A stretch of 64,000 nt of DNA, from positions 29,653 through 93,652 of the forward strand of contig JAJRWA010000048.1 in the NCBI GenBank assembly GCA_024277025.1, given 5' to 3'. Every line of letters begins with the position of its first letter. Position 1 is the first letter of the stretch. The position numbers and the translations under genes were made by a program. The DNA comes from Candidatus Krumholzibacteriota bacterium. Its GTDB lineage: Bacteria; Krumholzibacteriota; Krumholzibacteriia; LZORAL124-64-63. The notes under the pieces were generated by a model. That model made no database searches and had not been told where the DNA came from. It worked only from the letters and a program-made list of their open reading frames with translations. Shown here in pieces: positions 9,448 to 11,034 of this stretch.

Positions 9448-11034
9448 TCAGTCGTAGAGATCCTCGACTTTGTTGATGGTCACATACGCGCGCACCTTGC
9501 AGCCGCCCCCGTTCCTCGTGAAGTACCGCTGGCCATTGCTGGTGCCGTAGCTCCAACTCAGATCCCAGGTACCGACCACCTCGTCACTGCTGCCGTCATC
9601 CTGGTCCCATGCGGTGCCCGTCACCCGCATCGTGCCCCGGCCATCGGCATACACGTCGGTGTATTGCAGTGCGCTGTTGATGGCCACTTCGCCACCGACA
9701 CCAAGCCGTACCGGGTTGCTGGCCGGTCGGTTGGCCAAGGTCGTGTTGCCGGAGTCGCGGTGCAGGACAAAGTTGTAGTACAACTCGATCTGCGGGCCGA
9801 ACACACCGTCGCAACCCAGTTCAATAACGCGGATCTTGTCAATCGACAGCGCGTACCTGGCCCCGGTCGGCGTGCGGTCAGCGGGTGTACAGGCATTGAT
9901 CGCGTACTCGGTGGTCTCGCTCACCTTGGCAATGCTGTTGTCGGCCAGGTTGCGCACGGTATAGGACAGCGGCCGCGCCGAGGTCAGGGGGGCTTCGGCG
10001 GCAAAGTACTCGTCCAGGTTGCCGCTGGTGATCAACCCCTCGACACCGTCGTCCACGCCGCCGACGGTCGTGATGCGGAGGGACGATTCATTGAGCACGG
10101 CCAGATGGGAGGCCGCGACCGAACCGCTGCCGATGCCGTCACGGCTGGCCGAAAGGGCCGCGCGCATGTCTTCCACCGAATGGGTGCTGGTCATGGTGAG
10201 CATCAACAGGCGGCCATAGACGATGCTGGAGATATAGGTCGGGGGGTTGTCCGGCCCGATCCGGCCCAAAGCCACCTGCTCACTCAGTTTCTCTTCGCTG
10301 AAACTGTCGCTGAAGAACGACGAAGGCGTCTGGGGCAGCACCACCGAAACCGTGAACATCTTCTGGGTGAAGTAGGCCGTCAGGGTGTTCTCCTCGACCG
10401 TGCTGTCGTAGGAAAGGGACGATTGCACCTGGGTGCCCAGATAGTTGACCGAGATACCGAGGTCCAGGGCCGCCTGTTGCAGGGAATAGGTTGTCGTCTG
10501 GTCGAAGAAGATGCTGCTGCCCGCAACGTGACCGCTGTCATGGGCCAACTGGATCAGGTCACCAATGGCCACTGCGACACTTGAGGGATCCGGATTGTCG
10601 ACCGTCCGGGTGACATCTTCGGTGAGCAGGTCGATGAAGACCTTCAAGGGGGCGCGTTGCCGCACCGGCAGTTCACCCAGCGAACCCAGACCACCGGCGT
10701 ACTTGGCTCCCTGCAGCAGGGCGCCGAGCCACATGATCTCCGCGTCGGGGCTGAACACCGTGATCTCGCGGGGCGTTTCGGTGATGGAATAACGCGAGAC
10801 CGTACAGTCGTACTCGATGTTGTTGTAGGTCTCCGTCGAGTCGCGCGGGCCTTCGATCATTGTGTTTTCCGAGGCCCGCGGCGGCGAATACTCTTCCCAC
10901 GAAGGCAGGGACTTGATGTAGCCGTCCACATCGGCGATCACCGGCGGGGCTACGGAATCATCGCTGCTGCAGCCGGCCAGCAGGCCCAGGCTCAGCAGTG
11001 AGATGATCAGGACTATTGATGTTCTTGTGTGCAT
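9448..11034 (-). CDS. cholesterol-dependent cytolysin (thiol-activated cytolysin) family protein, CDC-like lipoprotein lacking the canonical undecapeptide
   Basis: The ORF 9448..11076 was trimmed to MHTRTSIVLIISLLSLGLLAGCSS (lipobox, GGAG RBS). A central stretch, YFTQKMFTVSVVLPQTPSSFF...NPPTYISSIVYGRLLMLTMTSTHS...SGNLDEY...LSYTVRNLADNSIAKVSETTEY, aligns by eye with perfringolysin O (FKQIYYNVNVNEPTRPSRFF...NPPAYISSVAYGRQVYLKLSTNSHS...DGNLGDL...IAYTTNFLKDNELAVIKNNSEY). The C-terminal domain contains no ECTGLAWEWWR undecapeptide. Confidence 0.7.
   Translation of the reverse strand: MHTRTSIVLIISLLSLGLLAGCSSDDSVAPPVIADVDGYIKSLPSWEEYSPPRASENTMIEGPRDSTETYNNIEYDCTVSRYSITETPREITVFSPDAEIMWLGALLQGAKYAGGLGSLGELPVRQRAPLKVFIDLLTEDVTRTVDNPDPSSVAVAIGDLIQLAHDSGHVAGSSIFFDQTTTYSLQQAALDLGISVNYLGTQVQSSLSYDSTVEENTLTAYFTQKMFTVSVVLPQTPSSFFSDSFSEEKLSEQVALGRIGPDNPPTYISSIVYGRLLMLTMTSTHSVEDMRAALSASRDGIGSGSVAASHLAVLNESSLRITTVGGVDDGVEGLITSGNLDEYFAAEAPLTSARPLSYTVRNLADNSIAKVSETTEYAINACTPADRTPTGARYALSIDKIRVIELGCDGVFGPQIELYYNFVLHRDSGNTTLANRPASNPVRLGVGGEVAINSALQYTDVYADGRGTMRVTGTAWDQDDGSSDEVVGTWDLSWSYGTSNGQRYFTRNGGGCKVRAYVTINKVEDLYD

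Follow-up and report, generated by a model that had tools for sequence, protein, structure and literature searches.

A cholesterol-dependent cytolysin-like lipoprotein with a predicted divergent C2-type domain in place of domain 4

Introduction

CDC-like proteins (CDCLs), relatives of the cholesterol-dependent cytolysins (CDCs), carry the motif F/Y-F/Y-Xn-YGR (Evans et al., 2020; PMC7527733). The first aromatic of this motif varies in 38% of CDCLs (PMC7527733). Papers differ on how many phyla have members, with counts between 8 and at least 12 (PMC7527733, PMC11952106). Examples are CDCL-L of Elizabethkingia anophelis (PDB 6xd4, 8g33) and BfCDCL-L of Bacteroides fragilis (PMC11169675, PMC11952106). 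Two-component CDCLs are marked by an adjacent second CDCL, short or similar in size, cleavage of an N-terminal propeptide by a surface protease and a co-transcribed immunity lipoprotein (Abrahamsen 2024). The fourth domain of CDCLs is variable, and published work on the long subunits of Elizabethkingia and Bacteroides has yet to name their receptors. Here we describe a CDCL gene of a Krumholzibacteria-like genome, found in a 64-kb stretch of DNA, the whole of which is referred to as the window.

Results

A lipoprotein gene and its N-terminus

The gene lies on the minus strand and is followed by a hairpin without a U-tract:

9448..11034, minus strand: coding sequence of the CDC-like lipoprotein, 528 aa plus stop
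9387..9421, minus strand: candidate transcription end, a perfect 10-bp GC-rich hairpin 27 nt past the stop codon

Its open reading frame (9448..11076, minus strand) could encode 542 aa, as an in-frame ATG at 11076 would add 14 residues, an extension that no homologue supports. We consider the ATG at 11034 the likely start codon because the resulting 528-aa product is the same as database protein P0001 in length and sequence, and because the homologues align from the same Met. A search of NCBIfam with the 528-aa protein returned nothing informative.

Three features mark the N-terminus:

10969..11034, minus strand: type II (lipoprotein) signal peptide, MHTRTSIVLIISLLSLGLLAG followed by C22, from the lipobox and family conservation
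10954..10968, minus strand: residues +2 to +6 after the lipid Cys, S-S-D-D-S (family consensus C-S-x-D-D-P)
10870..10947, minus strand: highly conserved segment ADVxxYxxxLPxWxxFSPP, from alignment and model

An earlier note, made from the sequence alone, had pointed out a lipobox LLAGC, and LLAG followed by C22 is indeed present. Taking a lipobox as [LVI][ASTVI][GAS]C after an n-region and an h-region, we found L-A-G-C22 preceded by a basic and then a hydrophobic leader (MHTRTS-IVLIISLLSLGL-LAG before C22); in the alignment, Cys22 is kept in at least 90% of the family. The export signal of Bacteroidota lipoproteins consists of a polar residue and then two acidic residues at +4/+5 (PMC5080379). 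By analogy, the S-S-D-D-S stretch resembles this signal and predicts surface exposure. Within the conserved segment that follows, L43 and W46 are invariant, and the model shows two short helices packed against the protein body; the segment could be a latch or a propeptide.

A CDC pore module with CDCL motifs

The central part of the protein consists of CDC domains 1-3, with the following landmarks:

9904..10791, minus strand: CDC domains 1-3 (Pfam Thiol_cytolysin, aa 82-377), by Pfam, phmmer and Foldseek
10369..10497, minus strand: equivalent of helical bundle 1/transmembrane hairpin 1 (aa 180-222)
10354..10365, minus strand: Q224-K-M226-F227, first half of F/Y-F/Y-Xn-YGR, from the alignment
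10210..10218, minus strand: Y273-G274-R275, with G274 and R275 invariant in the family
10063..10188, minus strand: equivalent of helical bundle 2/transmembrane hairpin 2 (TMH2; aa 283-324)
10057..10062, minus strand: invariant glycine pair G325-G326, counterpart of G324-G325 of perfringolysin O (PFO)

The Pfam search that the earlier note had proposed matched PF01289 (Thiol_cytolysin) over aa 82-377 with E=1.8e-33 and 116.3 bits, against a cut-off of 25. This agrees with the alignment to PFO domains 1-3 that the note had made by eye, including the core PPTYISSIVYGR at aa 264-275. Searched against the PDB with phmmer, the protein matched solved CDCs with E-values from 1e-20 to 1e-15, led by anthrolysin O (1.3e-20) and followed by vaginolysin, intermedilysin (ILY), SLO, PFO, pneumolysin (PLY) and LLO; these alignments cover aa ~80-383 only. 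Elizabethkingia CDCL-S was a weaker match (E=2.6e-9). A structure comparison, likewise proposed beforehand, gave the same picture: the full-length AF2 model (pLDDT 79) matched PFO, PLY, ILY and SLO with Foldseek E~1e-24 and TM ~0.5-0.57, the EaCDCLs with 1e-10 to 1e-13 and whole perforin with 1e-11. Membership in the CDC/MACPF superfamily, and in its CDC branch, is thus confirmed far beyond chance.

The presence of hairpin-forming helices had been named as a point to check in a predicted fold. The CDC matches of the model place it in the domain 1-3 fold, in which two helical bundles that refold into transmembrane hairpins flank a bent core sheet. In the model, helices 287-303 and 308-316 match bundle 2. 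The bundle 1 region (aa 180-222) includes nine residues of strict hydrophobic/polar alternation, LDLGISVNY, and is modelled with low confidence, as expected of a metastable segment. [quoted passage not shown] Invariance of Q224, G274, R275, G325 and G326 was scored over 34 homologues. The homologue alignment reaches down to 39% identity, with a mean column identity of 51% over the whole protein. Conservation of the switch residues together with this column identity argues for purifying selection on the pore machinery, and the same invariant or at least 90% conserved residues (YGR, GG, Q224, F227) in homologues as distant as 39% identity speak against a surface protein without lytic activity, such as an adhesin or a decayed toxin, that keeps only the CDC fold. 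The weak amphipathicity of TMH2 would fit such a protein, which we nevertheless regard as very unlikely.

Best scores of domains 1-3 against classical CDCs could also suggest a classical cholesterol-dependent cytolysin with a normal domain 4, aimed at sterol-containing eukaryotic membranes. We rejected this candidate and give it next to no chance, since the undecapeptide, the W-rich loop and CDC domain 4, which carries the Thr-Leu cholesterol-recognition pair, are all missing, and the CDC alignments end at aa ~383. A regular-expression search of the 528-aa protein found neither ECTGLAWEWWR nor anything similar, nor a W-rich motif; likewise, the C-terminal ~145 aa matched no CDC domain 4, either by phmmer against the PDB or among the 50 fold matches listed. 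The earlier description of a CDC-like lipoprotein that lacks the undecapeptide and has a C-terminal domain unlike CDC domain 4 is therefore supported by Pfam, fold and CDCL motif residues as well as by these searches.

A C-terminal domain predicted to be a divergent C2 domain

The earlier note had called the C-terminal domain unrelated to CDC domain 4. This holds insofar as CDC domain 4 is not matched, and is incomplete, as sequence and structure prediction identify the domain as a divergent C2 domain:

9451..9897, minus strand: divergent C2-type beta-sandwich, as predicted, replacing CDC domain 4 (aa 380-528)
9775..9819, minus strand: loop-1-like segment L-G-C408-D409-GVFGPQI-E417-L-Y-Y, from the C2 HMM alignment
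9562..9612, minus strand: loop-3-like segment A-W-D477-Q-D479-DGSS-D484-E485-VVGTWD, from HMM and hhalign

Modelled in isolation, the domain (pLDDT 93.8, pTM 0.86) forms an eight-stranded antiparallel beta-sandwich of C2 topology. All of the best 50 Foldseek matches in the PDB were C2 domains (TM-scores 0.4-0.5). Perforin C2 leads the list (4y1t, 2.3e-5, then 3nsj, 4y1s and 5ug7), followed by Jagged1, cPLA2, CEP120, E-Syt, Munc13, PKC-epsilon and ferlins; PKD, CBM and Ig domains are absent from these 50. Pfam found nothing significant in the C-terminal domain of the 528-aa protein, and its C2 model (PF00168) failed to detect the domain in the family, with one hit among 35 members (E=0.19); homology to C2 domains shows up only through family profiles and through the fold.

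We built a family HMM from 35 C-terminal domains. Its top 24 matches in the PDB were all C2 domains, aligned on loop 3 (Syt7, E=0.0015). Against 1.84 billion proteins it gave only 162 matches, at least 10 of them canonical multi-C2 proteins; it also draws PKD-repeat proteins through the DxD region, so that the motif by itself is not specific. Single-sequence hhalign aligned only the loop-3 motif at low probability (with perforin C2, 27 columns and a probability of 5.6%), and we therefore used the multi-C2 proteins matched by the family HMM to assemble a profile of canonical C2 domains. Aligned with this profile by hhalign, the family scored a probability of 80% and E=1.4e-5. With the canonical C2 HMM, loop 1 ('DpYvkv') and loop 3 ('DeDvgsaDDllG') could both be aligned to members of the family, among them a 76%-identical homologue.

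In these alignments, E417 pairs with the Asp of the canonical 'sDpYvkv'; compared with canonical C2 domains, loop 1 has two extra residues and Glu in place of Asp. Loop 3 has the spacing of the canonical Ca2+-binding loop (perforin, VWDADYGWDDDLLGSCD; Syt7, VMDKDKLSRNDVIG). In the alignments, D409, E417, D477, D479 and D484/E485 fall at the Ca2+-ligand positions of C2 loops 1 and 3. The acidic positions at these sites are 78-94% conserved: among 86 family members, Asp is found at 409 in 69, at 477 in 79 and at 479 in 81, and the E417 position is Glu or Asp in 80. Judging only by strand order and by C408/C512, a conserved pair, loops 1 and 3 would share one end of the sandwich. Sequence and model together suggest that the domain probably binds calcium and lipid.

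Other proteins carry this domain next to membrane-active modules. It directly follows MACPF in a bacterial Jacalin-MACPF protein; further fusion partners are Exo_endo_phos (sphingomyelinase-type) enzymes, a lipase and an SLH-bearing CDCL. These fusions are consistent with a membrane-targeting module.

The domain might instead be a generic Ca2+-stabilised beta-sandwich for a glycan or protein receptor on a specific target, with an acidic cluster of structural use. The silence of Pfam C2, the TM-scores of 0.4-0.5 and the PKD-repeat matches of the family HMM would fit this reading, as would the high variability of CDCL fourth domains, which are presumed receptor binders (PMC7527733). The fourth domains of other CDCLs and of BSAPs are likewise thought to recognise specific targets, and within the same domain 1-3 clade other modules, for example CarboxypepD_reg and PEGA, take the place of domain 4. 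We nonetheless judge it quite unlikely, given 50 best fold matches that are uniformly C2, loop motifs that align to canonical C2 domains at both loops with equal loop-3 spacing, and fusions to lipases, sphingomyelinase-type enzymes and MACPF, all modules that act on bilayers.

No partner gene or protease at the locus

The earlier note had suggested a short partner CDCL and an activating protease. tblastn with the protein found no second CDCL in the 64-kb window (no match below E=1), and each of three orthologous loci has a single PF01289 gene. Across these loci there was no conserved operon, immunity gene, small lipoprotein or adjacent protease; the recurrent neighbours are only secreted FlgD_ig/LVIVD/PD40-type proteins. 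M13 and M24 peptidases of the window lie 10-30 kb from the gene and are unrelated. In the homologue alignment aa 55-75, which we take, by analogy, as the counterpart of the published CDCL cleavage region, lack a conserved basic site.

These results bear on another possible role, that of the 'long' subunit, which binds the membrane, in a complement-like CDCL of two components as in Bacteroidota. The protein would then require a short or similar-sized partner encoded at an unlinked site, as well as activation by proteolysis on the target; such a system would also imply killing of close relatives, restrained by an immunity lipoprotein. CDCL family, lipoprotein signal and a four-domain layout are common to the window protein, EaCDCL-L and BfCDCL-L (PMC11169675), and the strongly conserved N-terminal segment could serve as the propeptide. 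Moreover, two C2-type CDCLs stand in tandem in one Krumholzibacteriia MAG (L007), the only relative with such a pair, and another MAG has at least three unlinked CDCL paralogues (L005, L021, L045), leaving room for an unlinked partner of the window protein. Against this, the window has no second PF01289-like sequence, the three orthologues share no neighbouring CDCL, protease or small lipoprotein, the presumed cleavage region shows no conserved basic site, and domains 1-3 resemble one-component CDCs (E=1e-20) far more than Elizabethkingia CDCL-S (E=2.6e-9). We consider a two-component system unlikely.

Distribution of the family

Public data contain ~290 homologues, and all that are named belong to Candidatus Krumholzibacteria, which we take to be part of the FCB group together with Bacteroidota. 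The assignment of the genome as Krumholzibacteria-like follows these named homologues. Domains 1-3 have relatives in Gemmatimonadota, Zixibacteria, Deinococcota, Calditrichia, Myxococcota and Bdellovibrionota. The C2-type domain 4 class accounts for 27 of 76 related species-level loci from the searches made here, in five phyla. The earlier note had found the gene notable for a high-GC genome, given CDCLs mainly from Bacteroidota; with homologues in Krumholzibacteria and CDCLs in 8 to at least 12 phyla, this was overstated. We rejected a taxonomically exceptional gene, as the named homologues are from Krumholzibacteria and the relatives are spread over several phyla; by itself, a CDCL gene in a Krumholzibacteria-like genome is ordinary.

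Discussion

On the basis of sequence and models, we moderately favour a single-gene CDCL that is borne on the surface or on vesicles, docks via its C2 domain and forms a beta-barrel pore. Helped by its S-S-D-D stretch, which resembles an export signal, the lipidated protein would end up on the cell surface or on outer-membrane vesicles. The C2 domain would then dock onto phospholipid exposed on a target membrane, probably in a Ca2+-dependent manner as perforin C2 does, and docked monomers would oligomerise via domains 1-3 before inserting a large beta-barrel; the residues of the prepore-to-pore switch of CDCs and CDCLs (F227, Y273-G274-R275, G325-G326) appear to be retained. Possible targets are competitors, prey or eukaryotic grazers.

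A separate observation concerns the target surface. On an LPS-covered cell, a lipid-binding C2 domain has no obvious ligand, which counts against docking onto lipid.

The toxin family is already known. In the literature searched we found no earlier description of a CDCL with a C2 domain, or of a Krumholzibacteria cytolysin, and the C2-type domain 4 variant appears unreported there. A widespread fourth-domain class that is C2-type, with intact Ca2+-ligand positions, would suggest a concrete mechanism using Ca2+ and phospholipid and no protein receptor. Two cultured carriers, Deinococcus rufus and D. yunweiensis, open this question to experiment. Bacteria would also pair a CDC/MACPF pore module with a perforin-type anchor, which bears on the origin of the perforin architecture. 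More tentatively, and with more doubt than confidence, bacterial pore-formers of both the CDC and the MACPF branch may share a true, hitherto unrecognised C2 domain that binds membranes and has the Ca2+-ligand layout of perforin C2. If this is true, the 'pore module plus C2' design of perforin has a bacterial counterpart, be it ancestral, transferred or convergent, and the CDCLs of Krumholzibacteria, Gemmatimonadota and Deinococcota would be one-component, Ca2+-triggered, lipid-targeted toxins, mechanistically apart from both cholesterol-dependent CDCs and the receptor- and protease-dependent CDCLs of Bacteroidota.

How the window protein compares with described systems can be set out as follows. 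With CDCLs it has in common the Thiol_cytolysin domains 1-3, the F/Y-F/Y-Xn-YGR motif, the GG pair and the SPII signal, as well as a non-CDC domain 4 and the lack of an undecapeptide. Classical CDCs (perfringolysin O, anthrolysin O, pneumolysin, intermedilysin) are its best sequence and fold matches over aa 80-383, with near-equal motif numbering (YGR at 273-275; GG at 325-326 versus 324-325 in PFO), and one-component oligomerisation is presumed as in these toxins. Unlike them, it is a lipoprotein rather than a secreted soluble protein, it lacks the undecapeptide, the cholesterol-recognition motif and CDC domain 4, and its producer is probably a diderm of the FCB group, judging from the named homologues.

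BSAPs (Bacteroidales secreted antimicrobial proteins) are lipoproteins. These bacterial MACPF toxins are likewise FCB-group pore-formers with swappable C-terminal targeting domains (PMC12853789); unlike the window protein, they belong to the MACPF branch and bind specific outer-membrane proteins or LPS glycans. A bacterial MACPF protein apart from the BSAPs (P0249/L080) does have the C2-like domain of the window protein.

Perforin-1 (PDB 3nsj, 7pag; C2, 4y1s and 4y1t) likewise has its pore module, of the MACPF/CDC fold, ahead of a C2 domain at the C-terminus, and loop 3 reads W-D-x-D-x-G-x-x-D-[DE]-[LV]-[LV]-G-[ST]-x-D in both proteins. By comparison, the pore module of the window protein is of the CDC rather than the MACPF branch, an EGF domain is missing, and C2 identity is ~15%; its predicted C2 domain has a longer loop 1, Glu for Asp, an extra conserved Cys pair and Ca2+ ligands that are predicted only. 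With its MACPF/CDC pore module followed by a putative C2 anchor, the window protein would therefore be closer to perforin in layout than to classical CDCs or to the two-component CDCLs of Bacteroidota.

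Gene and membership of the CDCL family

The minus-strand ORF 9448..11076 of the window (542 aa) covers the CDC-like gene. Its start is likely the ATG at 11034, because the resulting 528-aa product is the same as database protein P0001 and this Met is where the alignments of all homologues begin. Pfam Thiol_cytolysin (PF01289) matched aa 82-377 of this product with E = 1.8e-33 (116 bits versus a cut-off of 25). A phmmer search of all PDB chains matched anthrolysin O at 1.3e-20, followed by vaginolysin, intermedilysin, streptolysin O, suilysin, pneumolysin, perfringolysin O (PFO) and listeriolysin O and, more weakly, by the Gram-negative CDC 6nal (1.5e-9) and the Elizabethkingia short CDCL 8g32 (2.6e-9); every PDB alignment ended near aa 383. 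These matches confirm the placement in the CDC/MACPF superfamily that an earlier note had made from the sequence alone. Likewise, the core string PPTYISSIVYGR and the lipobox LLAG↓C are present as described there, and the protein holds no undecapeptide-like string.

CDCLs are defined by an F/Y-F/Y-Xn-YGR motif, a glycine pair downstream, the lack of the undecapeptide and the cholesterol motif, and a domain 4 (D4) unrelated to that of CDCs (Evans et al., PMC7527733); a lipoprotein signal is also common among them. In the window protein, the motif reads M226-F227 ... Y273-G274-R275, its first aromatic position (here Met226) being variable in 38% of CDCLs, and the glycine pair is G325-G326. Across 34 aligned homologues (identity down to 39%), Q224, G274, R275, G325 and G326 were invariant, and F227 and the lipobox Cys22 were at least 90% conserved. 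An AlphaFold2 model built from this alignment (pLDDT 79) matched CDC crystal structures (Foldseek E ∼1e-24), the long and short forms of the Elizabethkingia CDCL (1e-10 to 1e-13) and whole perforin (1e-11), so that the predicted fold agrees with both PFO-type CDCs and Elizabethkingia CDCLs, the comparison proposed in the earlier note. In the segment that aligns with CDC hairpin 1, hydrophobic and polar residues alternate strictly over nine positions, and the beta-amphipathic moment of this segment lies ∼2.8 sd above the protein mean; the signal of the hairpin 2 segment was less clear-cut. That a protein with these features is an inactive surface protein is very improbable. Because of the YGR motif, the glycine pair, their conservation, the fold matches and the missing undecapeptide, we assign the window protein to the CDCL family, every sequence-testable feature of which it carries. 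A classical CDC is refuted, as both the undecapeptide and the CDC D4 are missing.

A word-index search (8,000 scored candidates) returned 290 homologues at E ≤ 1e-3, the first ∼60 of which match over the full length (46-100% identity). Source-given names are all 'thiol-activated cytolysin family protein [Candidatus Krumholzibacteria]'. Scanning one genome per GTDB species gave 76 related loci, in which most full-length relatives belong to Krumholzibacteriota; for domains 1-3, relatives came from Gemmatimonadota, Zixibacteria, Calditrichia, Ignavibacteriales, Deinococcota, Myxococcota, Bdellovibrionota and some Bacteroidota. Published counts of phyla with CDCLs already ranged from 8 to at least 12 (PMC7527733, PMC11952106). 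Given this spread, a high-GC host outside Bacteroidota, which had been thought noteworthy, confers no distinction: the gene adds one more member to a known toxin family, and its relatives already carry that label by automatic annotation.

The C-terminal domain resembles C2 domains

Within the protein, model confidence was highest over residues ∼385-528. A separate model of the C-terminal domain (aa 380-528), based on 35 family sequences, was an all-beta sandwich (pLDDT 93.8, pTM 0.86), and its best 50 PDB Foldseek matches were all C2 domains, albeit with modest TM-scores of 0.4-0.5. Perforin C2 led (4y1t at 2.3e-5, then 3nsj, 4y1s, 5ug7 and 5ug6), followed by the Jagged/DLL N-terminal C2, cPLA2, CEP120 and extended synaptotagmins and, lower, Munc13, Itch/NEDD4L, PKC-epsilon and ferlins. 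No CDC or CDCL D4 was among these 50. The claim that the domain is unrelated to CDC D4 thus stands, but was incomplete in missing the likeness to C2.

Sequence profiles point the same way. The first 24 matches of a family C-terminal-domain HMM to all PDB sequences were all C2 domains (synaptotagmin-7 at E = 0.0015, then Syt1, dysferlin, otoferlin, myoferlin and plant C2 proteins), and in each of the 24 the family motif G-T-A-W-D-x-D-x-x-S-x-D-[DE]-x-I-G aligned with the loop-3 Ca2+-binding motif. Against a profile of 76 canonical C2 domains, hhalign gave a probability of 80% (E = 1.4e-5) over the beta6-loop3-beta7 segment. Family members, among them a homologue with 76% identity to the window protein, aligned to a canonical C2 HMM at both 'sDpYvkv' (loop 1 and the next strand) and 'fDeDvgsaDDllGe' (loop 3). 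The putative Ca2+ ligands map to D409, E417, D477, D479 and D484/E485, positions at which 78-94% of 86 family domains have an acidic residue (for D484, D or N); mouse perforin (true sequence, PDB) VWDADYGWDDDLLGSCD aligned opposite AWDQDDGSSDEVVGTWD of the window protein.

Among 1.84 billion representative proteins, the family HMM matched only 162 at E ≤ 1e-3; these include at least ten canonical multi-C2 proteins (four by Pfam, ten by a perforin-seeded iterative HMM) as well as PKD-repeat proteins. The Pfam C2 model did not detect the domain, and single-sequence comparison with perforin aligned only 27 columns. D4 is, in our view, probably a C2 domain of divergent sequence; that it binds Ca2+ and lipid has a chance closer to even. 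A Ca2+-stabilised receptor-binding sandwich in place of a lipid-binding C2 domain is quite unlikely.

Cysteines at aa 77/382 and 408/512 (nt ∼10804, 9889, 9811 and 9499) are ∼70-90% conserved in homologues. The first pair could form a D2-D4 junction disulfide, the second an intra-C2 disulfide beside the loop-1 Asp.

Genomic context

The window CDCL gene stands alone among the following features.

Features around the CDCL gene (window coordinates, strand)
942..2753, plus: FG-GAP/ASPIC protein, FlgD_ig / Por_Secre_tail-like C-terminal domain
7505..9004, minus: predicted lipoprotein (LVGSG↓C), 499 aa, FN3 domain, six to seven RCC1 repeats
9026..9289, plus: 87-aa ORF between the two lipoprotein genes, Cys-rich 'CKACKHSFS' zinc-ribbon-like stretch
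9387..9421, minus: perfect 10-bp GC-rich hairpin without U-tract, 27 nt after the CDCL stop, -33.9 kcal/mol, z = -2.3
11508..12356, plus: PAS-like and LuxR/GerE HTH regulator, upstream of the CDCL gene, divergent, 474 bp gap
12542..14830, minus: LVIVD beta-propeller with FlgD_ig-type C-terminus, beyond the regulator
21550..23658, minus: M13 metallopeptidase
25549..31389, minus: DUF11/OmpA/CarboxypepD_reg surface protein, 1946 aa

The FN3/RCC1 lipoprotein gene lies 444 bp downstream of the CDCL gene on the same strand. The hairpin may be a terminator, and the 87-aa ORF, which had no Pfam match, may be a remnant or spurious. Sigma-70-like hexamers occur on both strands of the 474 bp intergenic region 11035..11507 (4 found versus 0.7 expected). 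No toxin link is evident for the 1946-aa surface protein or the M13 metallopeptidase. Proteins with FlgD_ig / Por_Secre_tail-like ends also flank CDCL orthologues in two related loci (L001 and L002), which suggests a common secretion or sorting tag of the lineage.

On three other contigs, neither the RCC1 lipoprotein, the regulator nor the LVIVD protein was conserved beside the orthologue. The short partner CDCL and the activating protease suggested in the earlier note gained no support from the stretches covered: the 64 kb contain no CDCL paralogue, and the three contigs carry a single PF01289 gene each and share no protease or small lipoprotein. Elsewhere, a Krumholzibacteriia MAG (L007) encodes two C2-type CDCLs in tandem (5857..7539 and 7637..9352), resembling the 'similar-sized pair' class of Bacteroidota CDCLs, and another MAG carries at least three unlinked copies (L005, L021 and L045). 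Because of these tandem and multiple copies, a two-component mode appears possible for the lineage, but is not indicated for the window gene, and a Bacteroidota-style two-component, protease-activated, receptor-specific antibacterial toxin is unlikely, if not negligibly so.

The C2-like module in other proteins

Pfam scans of the family-HMM matches identified as partners of the C2-like domain Exo_endo_phos (sphingomyelinase/phosphodiesterase-fold; two proteins), a class-2 lipase, a CDCL with an S-layer-homology domain, and plant RIP+DUF6598 proteins. In addition, P0249 (L080 1748..4768) is a 1006-aa Hemopexin-Jacalin-MACPF protein with the C2-like domain directly after MACPF, an arrangement like that of perforin; its gene lies on a bacterial contig, adjoining a Por_Secre_tail gene and a GerE response regulator. 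From the Exo_endo_phos, lipase, CDCL and MACPF partners, the module travels mostly with bilayer-acting enzymes and pore-formers, including both MACPF/CDC branches in bacteria, which lends independent support to the C2 reading. In a Krumholzibacteriia MAG other than that of L007 (L013 3473..4327), it forms by itself a separate ORF directly downstream of a CDCL gene.

By local HMM, 27 of the 76 species-level CDCL loci have a C2-type D4 (in Krumholzibacteriota, Gemmatimonadota, Deinococcota, Bdellovibrionota and Bacteroidota), and the rest carry other D4 modules. Cultured carriers are Deinococcus rufus and D. yunweiensis (plasmid pDYP1), whose CDCLs (L048 and L055) also have long N-terminal extensions; they offer tractable hosts for experiments on C2-type CDCLs. 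A C2-type D4 with perforin-like architecture appears to be the new part, with no mention in the CDCL literature searched.

Proposed mechanism

The mechanism that we propose starts from the domain content, motifs and predicted folds of the window protein; its steps, from lipidation to barrel, draw on established CDC/CDCL and C2 biology. The precursor would be lipidated at Cys22. The S-S-D-D that follows resembles the lipoprotein export signal of Bacteroidota, a polar residue and then two acidic residues at +4/+5 (B. fragilis consensus SDDDD; PMC5080379), a hint that the protein is displayed at the surface or on vesicles. The C2 domain would then bind an exposed phospholipid surface, probably via Ca2+ bridged by the acidic loops, domains 1-3 would drive oligomerisation of the monomers, and the YGR/GG switch would free the two helical bundles to form a beta-barrel. 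Such a toxin would share its targeting logic with perforin, and its pore module would work like that of PFO.
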